A stretch of DNA of 64,000 nt from a virus (IMGVR_UViG_3300043410_000542:1-64000), one strand, 5' to 3'; counted from the first letter of the stretch, positions 1-56,827 are shown. Notes: generated by a model from the sequence alone, not told the origin. Translations and numbers: made by a program.

Positions 1-246
1 CTATGTAAAGAAATTGTTTTGCCTATGTTTGCTACAAAACCTAAATATCAATTCAGCCGTGCCAAATGGTACGAGGGTAAGTTTGACTGGCGCAAGTATG
101 AAGAGGTACATAACTGGTGTGAGCAACACTTTGGTAAGCATCCCAAGAGACCAGATGCTTGGTCACGCTGGAATCACATGTATGAAGATATGATTCTTTT
201 CCGTGATGAAAAAGATTACATGATGTTTGTATTGAGGTGGTCGTGA
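1..246 (+). CDS. LRW-array small protein 1 (frame open from position 1, probably 5'-partial)
   Basis: Ends FRDEKDYMMFVLRWS; internal WCEQHFG..W motif; no stop in frame back to base 1. Confidence 0.8.
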   Translation, partial: LCKEIVLPMFATKPKYQFSRAKWYEGKFDWRKYEEVHNWCEQHFGKHPKRPDAWSRWNHMYEDMILFRDEKDYMMFVLRWS

Positions 247-455
247 GATTAGAAAATGATTTAGACGGACTGCTCGTAAAAGAGCGTGTTAAATTTCATT
301 ATAAAGAAATACCATGGACCCAATTGCTTGAAATATCAGCATGGTGCGATAAACAGTTTGGTAAAAATAATTGGGGTTTTGACACGGGACATGTTGTATT
401 CAACGGTCGTTGTCCTGAAGGTAGCTCTACAATGTTTGTGTTGAGATGGTCATGA
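243..455 (+). CDS. LRW-array small protein 2
   Basis: GTG start overlaps upstream stop (GTGA) after GAGGTG; WCDKQFG..W; ends MFVLRWS. Confidence 0.8.
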   Translation: MRLENDLDGLLVKERVKFHYKEIPWTQLLEISAWCDKQFGKNNWGFDTGHVVFNGRCPEGSSTMFVLRWS

Positions 456-688
456 AAGTTGAAATTATATTTGATCCAGGGAAATATCCCTATCGTGCTG
501 AAATCAAATGGCATTCCTCTACTGATTGGAACTCAACTGAGGCATACGATTGGTGCGAGAGAAACTTTGGTCACAGAAATGCCAAGTATGAAAATCCTCG
601 CTGGTATGCTAACACTAGATACTTCACCGGTAACTTCAGGTTTCGTGACAAAAAAGATGCTGAATGGTTCTTATTGAGGTGGGGATGA
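452..688 (+). CDS. LRW-array small protein 3
   Basis: ATGA overlap; WCERNFG..W; ends FRDKKDAEWFLLRWG. Confidence 0.85.
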   Translation: MKVEIIFDPGKYPYRAEIKWHSSTDWNSTEAYDWCERNFGHRNAKYENPRWYANTRYFTGNFRFRDKKDAEWFLLRWG

Positions 689-942
689 GAGTGGAGTTTA
701 ATCAAGGCGTACCCGCAGGATGTAAGCAATGGCTTTGGGATAACGTCGGACCCGGGAATATAACATTGACTAGACCTGGTATCATTGATGCGGAGGATAG
801 TCCCGAGTATGCTTGGTTCTTTGAGCGTATTAAGAAACCAACAACCCCGGAATCGTTTTATGACGACCCGTTTTATTTTGTCCCTACTATCACAGTTAAA
901 GACCCGAAGATGGCGATGGTATTTGCGTTGAGGTGGCAATGA
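685..942 (+). CDS. LRW-array small protein 4
   Basis: ATGA overlap after GAGGTG; WLWDNVG; ends DPKMAMVFALRWQ. Confidence 0.85.
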   Translation: MRVEFNQGVPAGCKQWLWDNVGPGNITLTRPGIIDAEDSPEYAWFFERIKKPTTPESFYDDPFYFVPTITVKDPKMAMVFALRWQ

Positions 943-1136
943 AACAATATGGAATAGCCATTGAGAGTTGGCCGGCTACACGTAAAGTAGATGTTAAGTG
1001 GTGGCTGCTTGAAAACTTTGGACCCGAAGACTCTCCGACACAAAAGGGACGTTGGGGTTGTGCGTATGACTATGGGCTGGATAATATCTACATGGATGAA
1101 GATGTTTTTATAATGTATCAATTGAGGTGGGGATGA
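939..1136 (+). CDS. LRW-array small protein 5
   Basis: ATGA overlap; WLLENFG..RW; ends DEDVFIMYQLRWG. Confidence 0.85.
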   Translation: MKQYGIAIESWPATRKVDVKWWLLENFGPEDSPTQKGRWGCAYDYGLDNIYMDEDVFIMYQLRWG

Positions 1137-1381
1137 TGGATTTAGAACTTGTAAAAAAGATTGTAGTCAGACAAGGGCAGAATGAATTTCTGAAAAACCC
1201 CATCGTATGTCCACCCGAAGCAAAAGTTGTCACTGGTATAATGAAGGAGGATGCTTACTTACATTTTTTAGAAACCAAATGCGGCGTGGAGATTCTGTTG
1301 TCAGAATATCATCACGAGATAGTTGGGTACAATGTTCTTGATGAAAAGAAGTTTTCTTGGTTTGTGTTGAAGTGGGCATGA
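1133..1381 (+). CDS. LRW-array small protein 6
   Basis: ATGA overlap; ends DEKKFSWFVLKWA. Confidence 0.85.
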   Translation: MMDLELVKKIVVRQGQNEFLKNPIVCPPEAKVVTGIMKEDAYLHFLETKCGVEILLSEYHHEIVGYNVLDEKKFSWFVLKWA

Positions 1382-1545
1382 AGTTCTTTCGTAAAGTTAA
1401 GCTAGCCGAAGCATACGCTAGGGTAGAGTGGTGTAAAACAACTTTGGGCAAAGAAGTTAAAGGTGGTAACTGGTGGCGATACAAAGGACATCTTTACTTT
1501 ACAGATGAAAAGTGTTATACTTGGTATATATTGAGGTGGTTATGA
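1378..1545 (+). CDS. LRW-array small protein 7
   Basis: ATGA overlap; WCKTTLG..WW; ends FTDEKCYTWYILRWL. Confidence 0.85.
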   Translation: MKFFRKVKLAEAYARVEWCKTTLGKEVKGGNWWRYKGHLYFTDEKCYTWYILRWL

Positions 1546-1802
1546 GAGAACCTTATTTTGTTAGAGAAAGATACATCGTTCCTGTAGGCAGACTGTGGGC
1601 TGACCCTTGGCCTGACTACTTTAATAATTTTTGGGCACACTGTGGTTATGTTGCTGATGTGAATAACTGGAAACAAATCACAGTCGCTAATTATGAACTT
1701 AAACTATTAGGTGGTAAACTGATTCAAACTAGCACACAGGGTTGGTACTTGCGTTGGGATGATGAAAAGAGTCACACATTTTTTGTATTGAAGTGGTCAT
1801 GA
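1542..1802 (+). CDS. LRW-array small protein 8
   Basis: ATGA overlap; ends WDDEKSHTFFVLKWS. Confidence 0.85.
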   Translation: MREPYFVRERYIVPVGRLWADPWPDYFNNFWAHCGYVADVNNWKQITVANYELKLLGGKLIQTSTQGWYLRWDDEKSHTFFVLKWS

Positions 1803-2011
1803 AAATTATCAAATGGTATGAGCCAACTTTCAAGCCAATCATACAATTGATTGCGAAAGAAGCAAAAGAGTCAAAGTGGGGCAACAGTGAAGGTATGCGT
1901 GTGATTGCCAAACACAAGTTCGGACTTAAGATTAGTAAGGCTTCAGGTGATTGGCATAGAATCGTTGTATTAGATGAACAGAAGTATGCTTGGATGATGC
2001 TGAAACTATGA
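1799..2011 (+). CDS. LRW-array small protein 9 (variant end LKL)
   Basis: ATGA overlap; ends DEQKYAWMMLKL. Confidence 0.8.
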   Translation: MKIIKWYEPTFKPIIQLIAKEAKESKWGNSEGMRVIAKHKFGLKISKASGDWHRIVVLDEQKYAWMMLKL

Positions 2012-2289
2012 TACAATGGAATCGTAGCATAGGCTATAACATTGATAGACATAAAGCGAAAAAGATGGATTACCATATTATTACAGACGGAGCAGACTGC
2101 TACCCCTGGCACGAATACTTTGCTATTCTTCCTAGAAAGACAGTCACAGGTAAACGTATCTTCTGGGAGAAAGCATACAAACGCAAAGTGTGGGTAGTGT
2201 GGGGCACAGGGTTTCATATGGAACCTGAAACCCAGTACGCAACTATATTTGATTTATTGACTTATGAAAATACTAAACCTAAGACTTAA
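2008..2289 (+). CDS. hypothetical protein inside the array (no LRW motif)
   Basis: ATGA overlap; ORF with WHEYFAILPRKTVTGKRIFW. Confidence 0.7.
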   Translation: MIQWNRSIGYNIDRHKAKKMDYHIITDGADCYPWHEYFAILPRKTVTGKRIFWEKAYKRKVWVVWGTGFHMEPETQYATIFDLLTYENTKPKT

Positions 2290-2722
2290 GGCACGCTGGC
2301 GCAAGTATCTTGCTGACCGCAAGTTAGCAAAGAGTGGCTATAGTTCATGGCGTGTGTATAGACATTGCCGTGATGTTGATGTTATGCGTCATGCTGACAA
2401 AGTAAGTGATTTCTATTGGAAGTACAAGCATGTATTCGTGTGTGGTGGAAGTCCATCATCACACTATGCTTACAGCGTAGCACGTGATTACGGTCCTGCT
2501 GGGTTAGTGTTCGGCTACGAACTTATGAGAGACTGGTGTGAAACTAAATGCAGATTCAAGTATCGTGTTGACATTCACAGAGTATTGAAACAAACAGGTC
2601 TGGGTATTAACGGTGAAGAATATCCTGAATGGTACTTCAATGATATCGGTGGCACAGACCTAGTGTTCTTTGCTTTTATGAACGAACAAGATTATATTCA
2701 TTTTATGTTGAGGTGGGGATGA
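2264..2722 (+). CDS. LRW-array protein with N-terminal extension
   Basis: DWCETKC; ends FMNEQDYIHFMLRWG. Confidence 0.85.
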   Translation: MKILNLRLKARWRKYLADRKLAKSGYSSWRVYRHCRDVDVMRHADKVSDFYWKYKHVFVCGGSPSSHYAYSVARDYGPAGLVFGYELMRDWCETKCRFKYRVDIHRVLKQTGLGINGEEYPEWYFNDIGGTDLVFFAFMNEQDYIHFMLRWG

Positions 2723-2967
2723 GTAGTTTTAAGCACAAATCAGAACGCTACTATGGTAGCAAACATCAAGTACACACTGTATCTTGGAAGGGTCAAGGTG
2801 AAGTTGACGGAGATGCGATACGTGAGTGGTGCATTAGTAAGTTTGGACCAGCTGGATATCGTGAAGACCTAGGTGAGACTATATGGTTGGATGACATTAC
2901 CGGAAACGGTGAAATCTTCTTGTGTAAAGATGAATACTTGACTATGTTCTTATTGAGGTGGGATTGA
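2719..2967 (+). CDS. LRW-array small protein
   Basis: ATGA overlap; EWCISKFG..W; ends KDEYLTMFLLRWD. Confidence 0.85.
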   Translation: MSSFKHKSERYYGSKHQVHTVSWKGQGEVDGDAIREWCISKFGPAGYREDLGETIWLDDITGNGEIFLCKDEYLTMFLLRWD

Positions 2968-3245
2968 TGGAATACTTTTATGGTGGTGGCGGCAATAGTC
3001 GCCCGGTCTTCATATACAGATTCAAGGTTGATCCTTGTACTACTAAAATGTACCAGTGGGCCCAAGCATACCCAGAGAAAGGACCCTTCAGTCGTTTCCA
3101 TGTTGAATGGCGTTCAGTGTACAGCAAAATGGATTACCCGCTAGACTATGATATTATACAGTTTGAACATAGTGAAGCCGCTAAAGTATTCAGAATCGCA
3201 TTCGCCGGTGAGTATGAAGAAACCACCATGAAAGAATACAGATGA
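2967..3245 (+). CDS. array protein, degenerate LRW-like helix (FEHSEAAKVFRIAF)
   Basis: TGATG overlap after GAGGTG. Confidence 0.75.
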   Translation: MEYFYGGGGNSRPVFIYRFKVDPCTTKMYQWAQAYPEKGPFSRFHVEWRSVYSKMDYPLDYDIIQFEHSEAAKVFRIAFAGEYEETTMKEYR

Positions 3246-3424
3246 TTGAATGGAAAGTAGTTTATCGTGATATGGCAGCTAGTCAATGGGATGAAAAAGT
3301 TAAATGGTGTGCCAACAACCTCTATAACGGTGGACACTATGAACCGAACTGGCAGACGCAGTATCCATTCATTATCTTTACAGATGAAAAAGAGTTTGCT
3401 TGGTTTAAGCTGAGATGGGAATGA
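3242..3424 (+). CDS. LRW-array small protein
   Basis: ATGA overlap; KWCANNL..W; ends FTDEKEFAWFKLRWE. Confidence 0.85.
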   Translation: MIEWKVVYRDMAASQWDEKVKWCANNLYNGGHYEPNWQTQYPFIIFTDEKEFAWFKLRWE

Positions 3425-3627
3425 TTGTTGTTGGTATATACGTCACTGAGGATTTTCACATAGATAATGCGATTGATTGGGTGATAGCAAACTGTGAAAG
3501 TTTTGACAAGTACCAATTGATGGAACTTGATTTTGAAGAACGACAAGAACGAGATTGCTGGTTTAGACTAGATATGTATTTCAAAGAAGAAAAAGATGCG
3601 ATGATGTATAAGTTGAGGTGGGAATAA
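3421..3627 (+). CDS. LRW-array small protein
   Basis: ATGA overlap; ends FKEEKDAMMYKLRWE. Confidence 0.85.
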   Translation: MIVVGIYVTEDFHIDNAIDWVIANCESFDKYQLMELDFEERQERDCWFRLDMYFKEEKDAMMYKLRWE

Positions 3628-3974
3628 TGTTTGAAGAAGTTAATAAATGGTTTAAAATATTTGGTAAAGACATAGGAGAAAAGATGGTTCACAAAGCAGT
3701 GAGCCCGGGCGACCAATTCAGCGTATTTCAAATCAAAAATGGAATGGTTGGATTCAAGCCTTTCCTAATTATTGAGAATCAAAACGAAACTGTGTTATAC
3801 TCTAATCAACATTGCGTAGCAGTTGATGTGCGCCCGGAAGTCGAACAGTGGGTACTTGAACAGCCCATTCACATGTGGAAGTATGCAGAAGAAATTGATG
3901 ATTGTCATCACGGTATGACAAGATTGCTAGTAGATAGAGAATTATTAACTTGGATGACATTGAAATGGATTTGA
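3627..3974 (+). CDS. LRW-array protein
   Basis: TAATG overlap; ends DRELLTWMTLKWI. Confidence 0.8.
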   Translation: MFEEVNKWFKIFGKDIGEKMVHKAVSPGDQFSVFQIKNGMVGFKPFLIIENQNETVLYSNQHCVAVDVRPEVEQWVLEQPIHMWKYAEEIDDCHHGMTRLLVDRELLTWMTLKWI

Positions 3975-4402
3975 ATAGCCTGTCAGATAACGAATTGATT
4001 GATTATATCATTAAGCATGATACAGATCCTGTTAGGGTTCGTCTTGCCACTCACATGCAACGAGTAGCCGGTTCAATCATTGATGGATTAGTTGATGTTG
4101 GTATGGATGATACATGGTGTACGTTTAGAAGTGAGGTTAATGGTGCTAACTATCACCCTGGACAATATATCAACCACCTTGAGAATGAGGTTGAATATCT
4201 CAATGACAAACTAAGTGATGCGCTCAAAGAAATCAAAGACCTTCAAGCACGGACTATCATGGACTTTATCGGTGAACTCAAACAAGAGATTAAGACCGTA
4301 GAGTGGTGTCGTGATGAGGCTTACAGAGACAGAGACAAAGCACAAGAGAATGAAAAGATTATGAAAAGTAAACTTGACATGTGGGCAGTGTTGAACCGAT
4401 GA
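3965..4402 (+). CDS. hypothetical coiled-coil protein inside the array
   Basis: ATG lies within the upstream KW codons; heptad-rich C-terminal half; no LRW motif. Confidence 0.7.
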   Translation: MDLNSLSDNELIDYIIKHDTDPVRVRLATHMQRVAGSIIDGLVDVGMDDTWCTFRSEVNGANYHPGQYINHLENEVEYLNDKLSDALKEIKDLQARTIMDFIGELKQEIKTVEWCRDEAYRDRDKAQENEKIMKSKLDMWAVLNR

Positions 4403-4623
4403 ACACTAAAGTGGCAAGTTTTTTAGAACGTTGGTATGAAGAAGCAGAACTTAATGACAAGTACTGGCCCTATCAGTTCACAGTCAAAGACTGGCAGCGC
4501 ATTCGTGAAACTGAACGATTCTGTTATACGAACTTTAAGAGCAAGAACTGGCGCAATCGTGGAAGATACTTTGGATTCAAACGCAAAGAAGACTATGAGT
4601 GGTTTGTATTGAGGTGGGGATGA
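4399..4623 (+). CDS. LRW-array small protein
   Basis: ATGA overlap; FCYTNF..NW; ends FKRKEDYEWFVLRWG. Confidence 0.85.
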   Translation: MNTKVASFLERWYEEAELNDKYWPYQFTVKDWQRIRETERFCYTNFKSKNWRNRGRYFGFKRKEDYEWFVLRWG

Positions 4624-4877
4624 AAACTAAAGAAGAAGAAATGATGGACATCATGGCTGAAGAAATTCGCAAAGAGATTGATGAGGGTATTATTTCAAAC
4701 ATACTAGTTGAGTCTGGTTGGACACCTGTAAAATTTTATTTTAAGAACGGTCCTCAAGCGACTGATATACAGATTTGGTTAGCCGGGACATGCACCGGAG
4801 ATTATCGTAGATTGGGTAGTGACTACGTGTTTGAAAACAAACAAGACGCTGAATGGTTTATGCTACGATGGCTTTAA
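4620..4877 (+). CDS. LRW-array small protein
   Basis: ATGA overlap; ends FENKQDAEWFMLRWL. Confidence 0.85.
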   Translation: MKTKEEEMMDIMAEEIRKEIDEGIISNILVESGWTPVKFYFKNGPQATDIQIWLAGTCTGDYRRLGSDYVFENKQDAEWFMLRWL

Positions 4878-5134
4878 CGTTCAAAATAGATGAGGGTAGA
4901 GTATACGGAGCACGATACTACACGGCCGAACCTCACTGTGATGATTGGAATGAAGCAGTCCCGTGGTATTTACTACAAGACTGGGTAGAAGAAATGTATG
5001 GAGAGAGTAAAGGTTCTATCTGGTTTGACAGAAATAAAGCCCCCGAACCCGGTGAAAGATGGTATGTGAACAATGCGAAATTTTGGTTTCGCAACAAAGA
5101 AGATTTGGAATGGTTTTTACTAAGATGGCAGTAA
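4868..5134 (+). CDS. LRW-array small protein
   Basis: ATG within upstream RW codons; WVEEMYG..RWY; ends FRNKEDLEWFLLRWQ. Confidence 0.85.
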   Translation: MALTFKIDEGRVYGARYYTAEPHCDDWNEAVPWYLLQDWVEEMYGESKGSIWFDRNKAPEPGERWYVNNAKFWFRNKEDLEWFLLRWQ

Positions 5135-5373
5135 CGATTAAACTCAAACAACTGTACGGTGAACAAGAAAACTGGCTTGCTAAGAATGTAGGACCAAGAA
5201 TGCACTACCTTCACAATTCAATAGGTGGTCAGGGTTGGATCGCAAAGAAAGGTTCAGAAGAAGTAGAAATGGAAGGTCATGGTGGGACATACAGGGGTCA
5301 TATAACAGTTTGGAATCTAACATTTGCAGAAGATAAGTATGCTACTTGGTTTAGGATAATGTTTCCAGAATGA
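5125..5373 (+). CDS. array protein, degenerate end (FAEDKYATWFRIMFPE)
   Basis: WLAKNVG motif like member 4; ATG within upstream RW codons. Confidence 0.8.
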   Translation: MAVTIKLKQLYGEQENWLAKNVGPRMHYLHNSIGGQGWIAKKGSEEVEMEGHGGTYRGHITVWNLTFAEDKYATWFRIMFPE

Positions 5374-5588
5374 TAGAAGTCAAAATCATAGATATGTTGC
5401 CAAACGAGATTATGGACATAGTCAAAGAACTAAGAAAAAGTGGGCATGTTCAGGGCACAGACTTTGACTTTGAATATCACAAGCCCGAATACGATGACTT
5501 TAGTTACGAACCAGTGTATAATAGATATACAATCTTCAAGTTTTACAAAGAAGAATTAGCGACTTGGTTCGCATTGAGGTATCAGTAA
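5370..5588 (+). CDS. LRW-array small protein (variant LRY)
   Basis: ATGA overlap; ends FYKEELATWFALRYQ. Confidence 0.85.
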   Translation: MIEVKIIDMLPNEIMDIVKELRKSGHVQGTDFDFEYHKPEYDDFSYEPVYNRYTIFKFYKEELATWFALRYQ

Positions 5589-5875
5589 TGGCAGTATCAA
5601 GAGTAGGTGGGTTAAGCACAGGTACATTTACGACATACACTAGTATGTCTAAACCAGTGGACGAATCAGTTTACGAAGTGAAACAGAACGGACACATCCT
5701 ACATAGAATTGACCTGAGATATAATAAAGTTGATCCTGCTGATTATATCAAATGGTGTCGTAGAAACTTGGGCAATCGACAAGAGACATGGGACTTCTGG
5801 TTAGCAGGTGGTATCTTGTACGTTGAAGTCTGGGGTGACAAGGCAAAAGTCACCTATGAAATGTGGAAGCATTAA
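5588..5875 (+). CDS. last array member, degenerate
   Basis: TAATG overlap after GAGGT; KWCRRNLG..WDF motif. Confidence 0.75.
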   Translation: MAVSRVGGLSTGTFTTYTSMSKPVDESVYEVKQNGHILHRIDLRYNKVDPADYIKWCRRNLGNRQETWDFWLAGGILYVEVWGDKAKVTYEMWKH

Positions 5876-5876
5876 C

Positions 5877-6170
5877 ATGAGTGAACTAGTAGTAATAAAC
5901 GGAATAATACAACACAAACACGCATACATGGTGTCAGGCGATTCGATTGTATTTCACACTGCACCTCCCAACCGTTCTGATGTTAGTATTCTCATGGATG
6001 ACACTAGATATGAATACATAGGAGACGGTACTACGTTCGTATTTCAAGGAACACCTTCAGGTAGAATGAAATTTAGAAAGTTCATGGAAGAAGTGTACGA
6101 GAAGAAAGATGACCCGACAGTCAAAGACGCATTAGAGAAATTGAAAATAGTAATGGAGTTAGTAAAGTAA
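5877..6170 (+). CDS. hypothetical protein with tail-fibre-like beta-repeat motifs
   Basis: VINGIIQ..YMVSGDSIVFHTAP and GDGTTFVF; ATG just after the upstream stop. Confidence 0.65.
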   Translation: MSELVVINGIIQHKHAYMVSGDSIVFHTAPPNRSDVSILMDDTRYEYIGDGTTFVFQGTPSGRMKFRKFMEEVYEKKDDPTVKDALEKLKIVMELVK

Positions 6171-54547: not shown

Positions 54548-56827
54548 ATGCACTCACCCGAAATCGAATCAATCATCGAACATGCGATTGGTTTAGCTAA
54601 AGAGCGTAACCATCAGTATTGTACTGTAGAGCATTTGTTACTAGCCCTAGTCACCCATGCACCGTTTAAAAAGTGCATCGAGCAGTTTGGCACTAATGTT
54701 GAGGGTCTAACAGGTGATATCAATGCATACTTAGATAGCCTCAAATCTATCGTAGTTAATGTAGACCAAGGTCAAGAAGTTGCACCGCGCAAAACTAACA
54801 GCTTGGAACGAGTAATGAACCGTTCTGTGACGCAGGTTATGTTCACTGGTCGTAAAATGATTACTACAGTTGATTTGTACTTGTCAATCTCAGCAGAAAC
54901 TAACAGTCACGCCCATTACTTCTTATTGAAGTATGGTTTCTCTAAGACAGAGTTTGTTCCCTTCTGGCAGAAGAATTACAAGAGCAATCAATCTGAAGTT
55001 AATATGAGCGAAGACCAGGCTGACGAAGTTCTGGAAGAATACACAACTAATCTTACAGCAATGGCACGTGCTGATAAGCTAGAACCAGTTATCGGTCGCA
55101 ACAAAGAAGCGGAAGACATTGTTAACGTACTCGCTAAACGTTTCAAGTCGAACGTATTGATGGTCGGCGACCCTGGTGTAGGTAAAACTGCTATTGCAGA
55201 AGGTCTAGCACAGAAGATTATCGCAAAAGATGTACCTGACTTCTTGCAGGGCCACGAATTGTACTCACTTGAAATCGGTTCATTGCTTGCTGGTTCTAAA
55301 TATCGCGGTGACTTTGAAGAAAAGGTCAAAGCTGTACTAGAAGCACTAAACACTAAGAAGAAATCTATCCTATTCATTGACGAAGCACACACAATGCAAA
55401 GTGCAGGTAGTTCAACGAATGGTTCAGTTGACTTTGCTAACATGATTAAGCCTGCATTGACTAAAGGCACAATCAAAGTTATTGCAAGCACAACTTGGGA
55501 AGAGTATTACGAGAGTTTCGAGAAGGATCGTGCGTTGATGCGCCGATTCTACAAAGTCTCAGTTGACGAACCAAGTCAAGAATCTACAGTTCGCATTTTG
55601 AAGGGCTTGTCAGCACGACTTAACGACTTCCACAGTGTTGAAATCACTGACGAAGCTATCGAAGCCGCAGTTGAAGGTGCTACTCGTTACATTCAGGATC
55701 GTAAGAACCCGGATAAGTCAATCGACTTGATTGATGCCGCGTGTGCTAAACAACGTGTAGCAGAAAACAAGGGTGCAATCATCACTAAAGAACTTGTCTA
55801 CGAACAAATTGAGAAGTACACAGGTGTTCCTGCTGATAAGTTGAGCGATGACCGCAGTGACCGCATTGTTAACTTGGAATCTAACGTTAAAGACAAGCTA
55901 TACGGTCAAGAAGAATCAGTTGACAAAGTACTTGAACGTGTCTATGTGTCATTCGCCGGTATCGGCAACGAAACTAAGCCTCTAGCAAGTTTCTTGTTCT
56001 TAGGTCCAACTGGTACAGGTAAAACTGAACTTGCTAAGTTGTTGAGTAAGAACTTAGACATGCCATTGCACAAATACGATATGTCAGAATACGGCGAGAA
56101 GTTCTCTGTATCTAGCTTGATCGGTGCTCCCCCCGGATATGTAGGTTACGGTGAAGGTAACTTAGGTGGTGGTCGTTTGATTAACGACTTGAGCAAGAAC
56201 CCTCATGCTATCTTGTTGTTTGATGAAGTTGAAAAAGCTCACCCTGATATCTTCAACATCTTCTTGCAGTTGTTGGATGAAGGTCGTATCACTGGTAGTA
56301 ACGGTAAAGTCGTTAACGCTAAGAACACTATTGTTATTATGACTAGTAACTTGGGTTCTGCTGACAGTGAAAAGAACGTCATTGGCTTCGGTTCACAAGA
56401 AAAAGTCGGTGAAGATGACAAAGCATTGAAAGAGTTCTTTAAGCCAGAATTTAGAAACCGTATTGACTTGATTTGTAAGTTCAACAAGTTGGACATGCTT
56501 GCTATTAAGAAGATTGTGGTTAAGTTTGCAGATGATTTGAAGAAGTCATTGAAGTCTGTACACGATATCACATTGAATCTAAGTGAGCCAGTTATTGAAT
56601 ACTTGGCAGAAAAAGGTTACGATCCTAAGATGGGTGCTCGTCCGTTGTCTCGTAAGATTGATGAATTGATTCGGGTGCCTCTATCTAAGAAAATCTTGTT
56701 TGAGCGAATCAAAAGTGCTACAATCAACGTACACATTGGACTCTCTAATGAGATTGAGTTTGATGTAGTACAGAAATTAGTAGCGAAAGTAGGAGAAGAT
56801 GGCATTATCGAAGTCACATCCGAATAA
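54548..56827 (+). CDS. clpA: ClpA-like AAA+ unfoldase
   Basis: Clp N-domain; two Walker A motifs (GDPGVGKT, GPTGTGKT); KYRGDFE; GAPPGYVG; IGF loop; no ClpB middle domain. Confidence 0.9.
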   Translation: MHSPEIESIIEHAIGLAKERNHQYCTVEHLLLALVTHAPFKKCIEQFGTNVEGLTGDINAYLDSLKSIVVNVDQGQEVAPRKTNSLERVMNRSVTQVMFTGRKMITTVDLYLSISAETNSHAHYFLLKYGFSKTEFVPFWQKNYKSNQSEVNMSEDQADEVLEEYTTNLTAMARADKLEPVIGRNKEAEDIVNVLAKRFKSNVLMVGDPGVGKTAIAEGLAQKIIAKDVPDFLQGHELYSLEIGSLLAGSKYRGDFEEKVKAVLEALNTKKKSILFIDEAHTMQSAGSSTNGSVDFANMIKPALTKGTIKVIASTTWEEYYESFEKDRALMRRFYKVSVDEPSQESTVRILKGLSARLNDFHSVEITDEAIEAAVEGATRYIQDRKNPDKSIDLIDAACAKQRVAENKGAIITKELVYEQIEKYTGVPADKLSDDRSDRIVNLESNVKDKLYGQEESVDKVLERVYVSFAGIGNETKPLASFLFLGPTGTGKTELAKLLSKNLDMPLHKYDMSEYGEKFSVSSLIGAPPGYVGYGEGNLGGGRLINDLSKNPHAILLFDEVEKAHPDIFNIFLQLLDEGRITGSNGKVVNAKNTIVIMTSNLGSADSEKNVIGFGSQEKVGEDDKALKEFFKPEFRNRIDLICKFNKLDMLAIKKIVVKFADDLKKSLKSVHDITLNLSEPVIEYLAEKGYDPKMGARPLSRKIDELIRVPLSKKILFERIKSATINVHIGLSNEIEFDVVQKLVAKVGEDGIIEVTSE

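Follow-up and report, generated by a model that had tools for sequence, protein, structure and literature searches.

Translational coupling at ATGA or TAATG stop-start overlaps, with the Shine-Dalgarno (SD) sequence located inside the upstream gene, occurs in bacterial and phage operons. The hyperplastic regions of T4-type phages are shuffled via promoter-early stem-loop (PeSL) cassettes (PMC2839356 and PMC4122927). The DNA studied here is the 64,000-nucleotide (nt) stretch IMGVR_UViG_3300043410_000542:1-64000 from a virus, hereafter the window, whose first 5,875 nt hold an array of 23 small genes (g01-g23). This array is a coupled operon and a shuffled small-gene region, both of known kinds, built from an undescribed protein family that we refer to by its C-terminal LRW motif. 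Similar to the classical coupled operons, the window has stop-start overlaps with a GAGG 5 nt before the ATG in the preceding coding sequence. However, a protein motif of one paralogue family would provide the signal at nearly every junction here, and the same Trp codon would serve either as the SD tail or as a part of the start codon; the coupling is read from the sequence. As in the PeSL regions, blocks of small and mostly unknown genes located between conserved core genes come, go and are exchanged among relatives by way of a short DNA motif that is repeated. The repeat here differs in being a coding and translational junction rather than a promoter plus a terminator, and the genes are one-domain paralogues.

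The original prediction described 23 back-to-back open reading frames (ORFs) on the plus (+) strand at 1-5875, and all of them are present, with lengths of 55-152 amino acids (aa) from the junction start codons. The chain extends past position 5875 into g24 (5877-6170) and then into an exonuclease gene starting at 6170. The junctions from g01 to g24 comprise 14 ATGA overlaps, one GTGA overlap, three TGATG/TAATG overlaps, three starts within the R/K-W codons (10-nt overlap), one 26-nt overlap and one 1-nt gap. Thus, 22 of the 23 junctions overlap and the remaining one has a gap of a single nucleotide. The array was also said to run off the left edge of the window, which is true, as that edge is the end of the contig. 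The endings are as predicted: L[RK]W-x-stop closes exactly 16 genes, and LKL or LRY closes two more. On the plus strand of the array, 16 of the 33 stop-to-stop ORFs with 50 aa or more have the L[RK]W-x-stop ending, vs. none of the 313 ORFs of this size elsewhere in the window, indicating that the ending is not due to chance. Trp accounts for 5.1% of the array residues vs. 0.86% in 15 long ORFs, and the pI of the members spans 4.4-9.9. The GC skew over window positions 1-6000 is 0.21-0.25 vs. ~0.05 in most of the remaining window, and the raised value fits the abundance of TGG and GAGGTGG words in the array.

Leave-one-out profiles placed 15 of 20 candidate genes in one family at E≤0.01, with marginal values for g21, g22, g08 and g23 (0.011-0.11). 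The test failed for g16 (E=11) in spite of its LKWI ending, and g10, g13, g17 and g24 are unrelated to the family by the same profiles (E 8-73). By this measure, about 19 of the 23 genes are putative old copies of one Trp-rich C-terminal domain of ~55 residues. The upstream W(C/L)xxNFG...W motif noted in the original prediction is real in the alignment of the members. A profile of 20 window sequences matched 966 clusters (50% identity) at E≤1e-3 in a representative library of 1.84 billion proteins. Nearly all of these matches are small proteins in which the match reaches the last residues; L[RK]W is found in the last 12 residues of 135 of the 150 top matches, 94 of which have exactly one residue after it. 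Recruitment with a g01-type alignment gave 77 IMG/VR loci with 574 further copies, all of them in same-strand arrays (on the strand of the seed gene). Copy numbers in five large related records are 5, 8, 22, 23 and 24.

Searches for a name or a relative of the domain gave consistent negatives. Neither Pfam nor PHROG has a match to the domain itself above threshold, which together with the 966 clusters agrees with the predicted single amplified small-domain family with no characterised relative. The PDB sequence profile search gave chance-level rows only (ErmC' at E 0.11, HerA at E 0.57), and the ESM Atlas gave unnamed viral clusters only (0.89-0.90) and no structure model for the two proteins queried. 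A pattern-limited scan of prokaryote genomes (one per species) for the g01 type gave 27 pattern matches, none of which was confirmed. We found no paper describing an LRW mini-domain family, which appears new to the searchable literature. The result is a very large phage-only family without a name.

Contrary to the original prediction, comparisons with other phages showed that the array is not hypervariable. Orthologues with 53-97% identity in another phage were found for 23 of the 24 window genes (34% for g02), whereas the best paralogues inside the window share 29-44% identity over partial lengths. The dN/dS values against the best orthologue are 0.03-0.40 in the 20 of 24 pairs with unsaturated dS. 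The paralogues are therefore old, stable and under purifying selection. Three genes outside the family (g10, g13 and g17) are conserved to the same degree, in 27-36 loci, and g19 has orthologues in 50 loci. In 649 distinct family proteins, the strongly conserved positions are W33 (96%), C34 (68%), G39 (72%), W50 (90%), F59 (85%), D64 (75%), F68 (91%), L70 (94%), R/K71 (93%) and W72 (95%). Thus W33, W50, F59 and F68, which are distant from the junction, match LRW in conservation. The constant C-terminal helix of the original prediction holds as a conserved C-terminus; however, it is not the helix alone that is constant, as the whole domain of ~55 residues is conserved. The periodicity of conserved hydrophobic residues, on which alone the secondary structure was assigned, suggests a helix at ~29-39, a loop with W50, a strand at 56-60 and a final helix at 62-73.

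The usual junction in the window reads TTG AGG TGG nnA TGA, in which the stop overlaps an ATG and the GAGG lies 5 nt ahead of that ATG. In the alternative junction, NNA TGG, the start codon is formed within the R/K-W codons. Other window genes have AGGA/GGAG-type sites 6-8 nt before the ATG. The Arg codon at the motif is AGG in 10 of 14 cases vs. 2.9% of the 450 Arg codons in 35 long window ORFs (p=4e-13), and the Leu codon is TTG in 14 of 17 cases vs. a background of 37%. For a wider comparison, 476 distinct C-termini were kept from 594 domain matches, and 118 were dropped because of a duplicate 88-nt context, a profile match that stopped short of position 70, a tail of more than 8 residues behind the domain or downstream DNA shorter than 60 nt. 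When GTG and TTG starts and ORFs of at least 30 codons were allowed, 460 of the 476 C-termini are coupled, with a start located between -17 and +4 relative to the stop. AGG is used in 157 of the 206 motif-bearing ends in the class with an ATGA overlap (229 ends), and in 56 of 69 in the class with the next ATG at -1 (TAATG/TGATG, 75 ends). In the class with the next ATG inside the R/K-W codons (84 ends), AGA, AAA or CGA is used in all 78 motif-bearing ends, so that the final A of the codon and the following TG(G) make the next start.

The remaining 16 ends are uncoupled, 14 of which keep [LM][RK]W, with AGG in only one of nine Arg codons. The residues are thus retained for the protein and the spelling for the next gene. 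The codon usage across these classes shows two apparent selections on the LRW codons, one for the end of the protein core and one for the initiation of the next gene. The original prediction had stated that it would fall if the motif were fully explained by ribosome-binding-site selection, which the uncoupled ends do not show. LRW therefore stands as an amino-acid motif; however, much of its sameness at the nucleotide level is due to selection for translation initiation. The junction offers a clear example from nature of a single short stretch that serves as both a protein end and a gene start.

Comparisons of the array with related loci showed that the same orthologues occur in different order and number across 22 loci. 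In one of these loci (L034), the order is g08-g05-g16-g17-g18-g04-g06, later followed by g19-g20 and g21-g24. In the window, g05 separates g04 from g06, whereas g04 and g06 abut in L034 and g05 is elsewhere. Alignments by blastn against the closest loci showed that most homology blocks open 8-41 nt ahead of the stop of the preceding gene, in the shared junction word, and that most close no more than 6 nt from the stop of the cassette itself. Blocks within g10, g16 and g21 start or end deeper inside the gene. Within the window DNA, the junction word occurs 9-11 times. These comparisons show that related phages have gained, lost and reordered whole cassettes at the junctions. An early promoter and a stem-loop for each cassette, as in PeSL regions, were not found in the array: promoter-like sites (31 vs. 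27 ± 4.9 in shuffles) and terminator-like sites (5 vs. 5.2 ± 2.4) are not in excess, and the overlapping junctions leave no intergenic room. As every cassette would carry the initiation signal for its successor, the small genes could be swapped between phages without loss of expression. The genes outside the family (g10 at 2008-2289, g13 at 2967-3245, g17 at 3965-4402 and g24 at 5877-6170) are shuffled together with the family and are conserved in 3-36 related loci.

Some members carry N-terminal extensions with copies of conserved phage motifs. At least one terminase, ribonucleotide reductase (RNR) or capsid motif was found in 70 of the 649 family proteins vs. none of the 649 reversed sequences, and a terminase module followed by an RNR module in 13. 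Such extension mosaics were found among the family proteins in L001-L077 and P0001-P0159. The comparison relative, G001, is a complete genome of 364 kb with terminal repeats. Searches of 234 distinct extensions (at least 25 aa) against its large proteins gave 46 matches at E≤0.01 vs. 4 for shuffled extensions, and 37 of the 46 are to the capsid protein. Likenesses of extensions to an aminotransferase, a radical-SAM protein and a 569-aa protein were rejected, each being a single weak match where the shuffled control gave 4. A profile of the G001 capsid protein matched 37 of the 649 family proteins at E≤0.01 and none of the reversed sequences, with 31 matches on capsid residues 45-102 and 6 on residues 156-238. 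The capsid motif GVQPM is present on 29 of the 649, and the first 55 positions of Pfam Gp23 are matched by 15 of 150 homologues on their N-terminal extensions. Capsid residues 45-102 correspond to residues 74-123 of T4 gp23, a region containing Gol, which we take to be residues 93-122. One family protein (P0022) aligns to T4 gp23 residues 74-123 with 42% identity. According to a review (PMC3014915), a 29-residue stretch of gp23, its most conserved part, binds EF-Tu and activates the Lit protease. Like T4 Gol, the cofactor of e14 Lit via EF-Tu in that account, 31 of the 649 family proteins carry the equivalent capsid stretch. Unlike T4 Gol, these are short copies on small non-capsid proteins, known here from sequence alone.

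The terminase module, a Walker A motif of the form xRQxGK[ST] after a hydrophobic strand and a YQ motif, is carried by 18 of the 649 proteins. Its comparison by hhalign with residues 57-94 of the phage's own TerL gave a probability of 56% and an E-value of 1e-4, vs. 0.09 for the reversed TerL. The RNR motif (I)Y.xNLCxEIxLP is carried by 37 of the 649 and corresponds to residues 438-451 of the Pfam-confirmed large subunit of G001, with 79-83% identity over 12-14 aa; this loop presumably carries the catalytic Cys. Within the window, the extension of g01 is cut and only 'LCKEIVLP' is left of it. Its orthologue (L004:6927-7466), with 94% identity, carries both terminase-like and RNR-like modules at the N-terminus. 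The GVQPM capsid stretch was found neither in the g01 remnant, whose start is lost at the contig end, nor in this orthologue. The N-terminal helix of g19 (window positions 4632-4733, 22-34 residues) weakly resembles capsid residues 192-225; hhalign gave an E-value of 4.7e-4, whereas none of the other 23 genes scored below 0.063 and the reversed controls reached 0.028 at best, and the Pfam Gp23 score of 15.8 bits is below the cut-off. A likeness of g21 to the capsid C-terminus (E 0.39) was rejected as chance. The capsid protein of the lineage (G001 283390-284595, homologues P0165-P0284) is itself uniform and abundant: all 8000 scored candidates are at E≤1e-20, and the best 120 share 87-97% identity.

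The explanation that we consider probable, though well short of certain, combines a run of old one-domain cassettes, a double-use LRW junction and a small-binder function. The stretch would be one polycistronic run of paralogous cassettes, probably expressed early or in mid-infection as judged from its position. LRW would be the end of the last helix and a part of the conserved core, and its codons would drive translation of the following gene via GAGG(TGG) or via the start codon itself, each cassette thereby supplying the initiation signal for whatever follows. The domain may be a stable mini-scaffold, with specificity residing in the variable N-terminal parts and loops, and the whole set may be an assortment of small binders directed at proteins of the host or the phage during takeover. 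The lack of an excess of promoter-like or terminator-like sites fits a single unit, and the wide pI span of the members fits varied surfaces. Several points weigh against this explanation. The expression timing derives from gene position alone, translational coupling by re-initiation is deduced from the overlaps, and the predicted fold and the scaffold idea come from conservation patterns alone. At the three window junctions whose next start falls within the R/K-W codons, no SD sequence is evident upstream, and the control set of uncoupled ends is small (16). The chain also includes four genes outside the family that are nonetheless shuffled in the same manner. No binding partner, fusion or neighbouring gene indicates the function of the family, and no carrier of the domain of 267-2000 aa was found, although that search is weak evidence.

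The copied motifs bear on a different explanation, a peptide-decoy or display arsenal, which we regard as unlikely. The scaffold would present host sensors with short copies of the best-conserved parts of proteins that the phage needs: Walker A of the terminase with its strand, the catalytic loop of RNR and, from the capsid, a helix and the N-arm with Gol. Members without such motifs would bind other targets. Expression of the cassettes would precede that of the genuine proteins, and their products would saturate or mis-engage Lit-, Avs7- and Upx-type defences, sometimes via unfolded cores. For the motif-bearing subset, display or decoy use fits the 70 of 649 proteins with motifs vs. none of the reversed ones, the 37 capsid-profile matches vs. 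none reversed and the 42% identity of P0022 to gp23, as well as the terminase module's E-value of 1e-4 to TerL vs. 0.09 reversed and the 79-83% identity of the RNR loop. However, the motifs are present on just 11% of the family proteins, and within the window only on g01 (a cut, RNR-like piece) and, weakly, on g19. To our knowledge, there is no sensor of RNR, which also counts against decoys. Host sensors do read the other cores: Gol binds EF-Tu and activates Lit (PMC3014915), the capsid protein and EF-Tu are jointly sensed by Avs7 (PMC13581612), and Upx is modelled to bind or thread unfolded terminase ATPase strands (PMC13601566). Yet abortive-infection sensors are usually triggered by binding, so a look-alike could harm the phage, and a plainer alternative is that the motif pieces are recombination scars beside conserved genes. 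If copies of the motifs did act on host sensors, they would represent a novel way for a phage to counter pattern-recognition immunity. The capsid segments on 37 members might also suggest virion or head-internal proteins, either packaged cargo or capsid-assembly accessories, and g17 has a Phage_scaffold match that is sub-threshold (17.9 bits, cut-off 35). This is very unlikely, as the array lies with replication genes and remote from the head genes (in G001 the arrays are at 51-58 kb and 200-205 kb and the capsid gene is at 283 kb), the members have no common N-terminal leader, and gp237 of Pseudomonas phage PA5oct lacks the 'ESI-MS/MS' note borne by several of its neighbours in the record.

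The shuffling could instead be that of selfish self-coupling cassettes that spread via the shared junction with little benefit to the phage. We give this a low probability. The copy number of 5 to 24 among the five large related records, the differences in order and content among close relatives with borders at the junction, and the 9-11 recurrences of the junction word in the window DNA are as expected for such elements. However, all cassettes with unsaturated dS are under whole-length purifying selection (dN/dS 0.03-0.40), orthologues persist in many phages (50 loci for g19, 36 each for g10 and g13), and no nuclease or recombinase accompanies the cassettes. The codon usage at the junction raises the further alternative that LRW is a mere ribosome-binding-site artefact of selection on the DNA only. 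Such selection fits the marked synonymous preference for TTG AGG at the motif and the coupling of 460 of the 476 ends, but it would not explain why the residues are kept with the non-SD codons AGA, AAA and CGA in all 78 ends with the start inside R/K-W and in 14 of the 16 uncoupled ends. Neither would it explain the equal conservation of W33, W50, F59 and F68, 12-120 nt upstream of the junction. An artefact is thus extremely unlikely, being already at odds with these counts.

All genes of the array are on the plus strand, and the E-values given for them are those of the leave-one-out family profiles (Z=1000). Gene g01 (1-246) is a family member cut by the contig end and ends in LRWS (E 2.3e-11). 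Gene g02 (243-455) has a GTG start in the GTGA overlap and ends in LRWS (E 6.8e-5); the best orthologue is the one with only 34% identity. The top-scoring member is g03 (452-688), a protein of 78 aa that ends in LRWG (E 1.7e-13). Orthologues of g03 share 67-72% identity in the loci and 74-92% in a protein collection, the search of which returned 7 proteins only. It is followed by g04 (685-942, ending in LRWQ, E 5.1e-4), whose orthologue in L034 is 93% identical, g05 (939-1136, LRWG, E 1.5e-5) and g06 (1133-1381, LKWA, E 0.002), which has an orthologue with 89% identity. At 55 aa, g07 (1378-1545) is a minimal member, ending in LRWL (E 1.7e-8). The marginal g08 (1542-1802) ends in LKWS (E 0.095) and has orthologues with 78% identity, and g09 (1799-2011) is a member that ends in LKL (E 0.0073).

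The middle of the array contains three of the four genes outside the family, none of which (nor g24) has a Pfam or PHROG match above threshold. The coupled g10 (2008-2289) is conserved in 36 loci (E 22), and the likewise coupled g13 (2967-3245) is also conserved in 36. Between them lie g11 (2264-2722), a member of 152 aa with a long N-terminal extension and the ending LRWG (E 3.2e-6), and g12 (2719-2967), which ends in LRWD (E 2.7e-6). Both g14 (3242-3424, E 7.9e-9) and g15 (3421-3627, E 8.5e-6) are members ending in LRWE. The doubtful g16 (3627-3974, E 11), ending in LKWI, matches only a profile containing itself, and the 145-aa g17 (3965-4402) starts with an ATG within the g16 K-W codons and has sub-threshold Pfam matches. 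Family members resume with g18 (4399-4623, LRWG, E 3.5e-4) and g19 (4620-4877), the latter ending in LRWL spelled CTA CGA TGG (E 4.6e-7). The ATG of g20 (4868-5134, ending in LRWQ, E 1.1e-5) lies within the g19 R-W codons, and that of the marginal g21 (5125-5373, ending in IMFPE, E 0.013) within the g20 R-W codons. The last two genes are marginal members: g22 (5370-5588) ends in LRYQ (E 0.011), and g23 (5588-5875) keeps a WCxxNLG motif and ends in EMWKH (E 0.11). Gene g24 (5877-6170) begins 1 nt after g23, and a TAATG joins it to the following exonuclease gene.

The window covers the initial 64 kb of an IMG/VR contig of 86,257 bases with a CheckV completeness of 25%. Its large genes assign the source, an uncultured freshwater phage, to the jumbo myoviruses. 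They code for a tail sheath protein of 1207 aa, a tube protein, a T4 gp15-like protein, a DnaB-like helicase, a Toprim primase, an Rv2179c-like exonuclease and a ClpA-like ATPase. The sheath shares 45-47% identity with those of Agrobacterium phage Atu_ph07, Sinorhizobium phage Phosso and the PA5oct group, and Megablast of the window against phage records gave no match at the DNA level. The array is upstream of, co-directional with and directly adjoining the exonuclease, primase and helicase genes. Two freshwater metagenome runs from one sample contain 93-95% of the array words and may be the source; there is no RNA run among the sequencing runs listed as containing these words.

A tblastn search of phage records with g03 and P0004 gave no match; weak members were subsequently recovered by the profile search from three cultured phages, in which each is annotated as a hypothetical protein. 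Sinorhizobium phage Phosso (PV764938.1) has 29 profile matches (best E 1.4e-11), Agrobacterium phage Atu_ph07 has 3 (best E 1.8e-4) and Pseudomonas phage PA5oct has 2, including gp237 (NC_071039.1 165381-165596; best E 3.7e-6). The E-values of these matches are modest throughout (1e-11 to 8e-3), and T4 and Vibrio phage 2.275.O have no family profile match each. As in the window, the domain pattern WC..F/V, F.F.E..DA..F.L is found in small proteins of related jumbo myoviruses. However, the endings differ from those of the window, being LRY-KGT in Phosso and LYF plus a tail in PA5oct gp237. The main text of the PA5oct paper does not mention gp236-238. The three cultured carriers offer a route from sequence to bench. 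Far downstream of the array, at 54548-56827, the window codes for the phage-encoded ClpA-like ATPase, a protein of 759 aa with two AAA domains that matches phrog_4871 'ATP-dependent protease' at E 4e-238.

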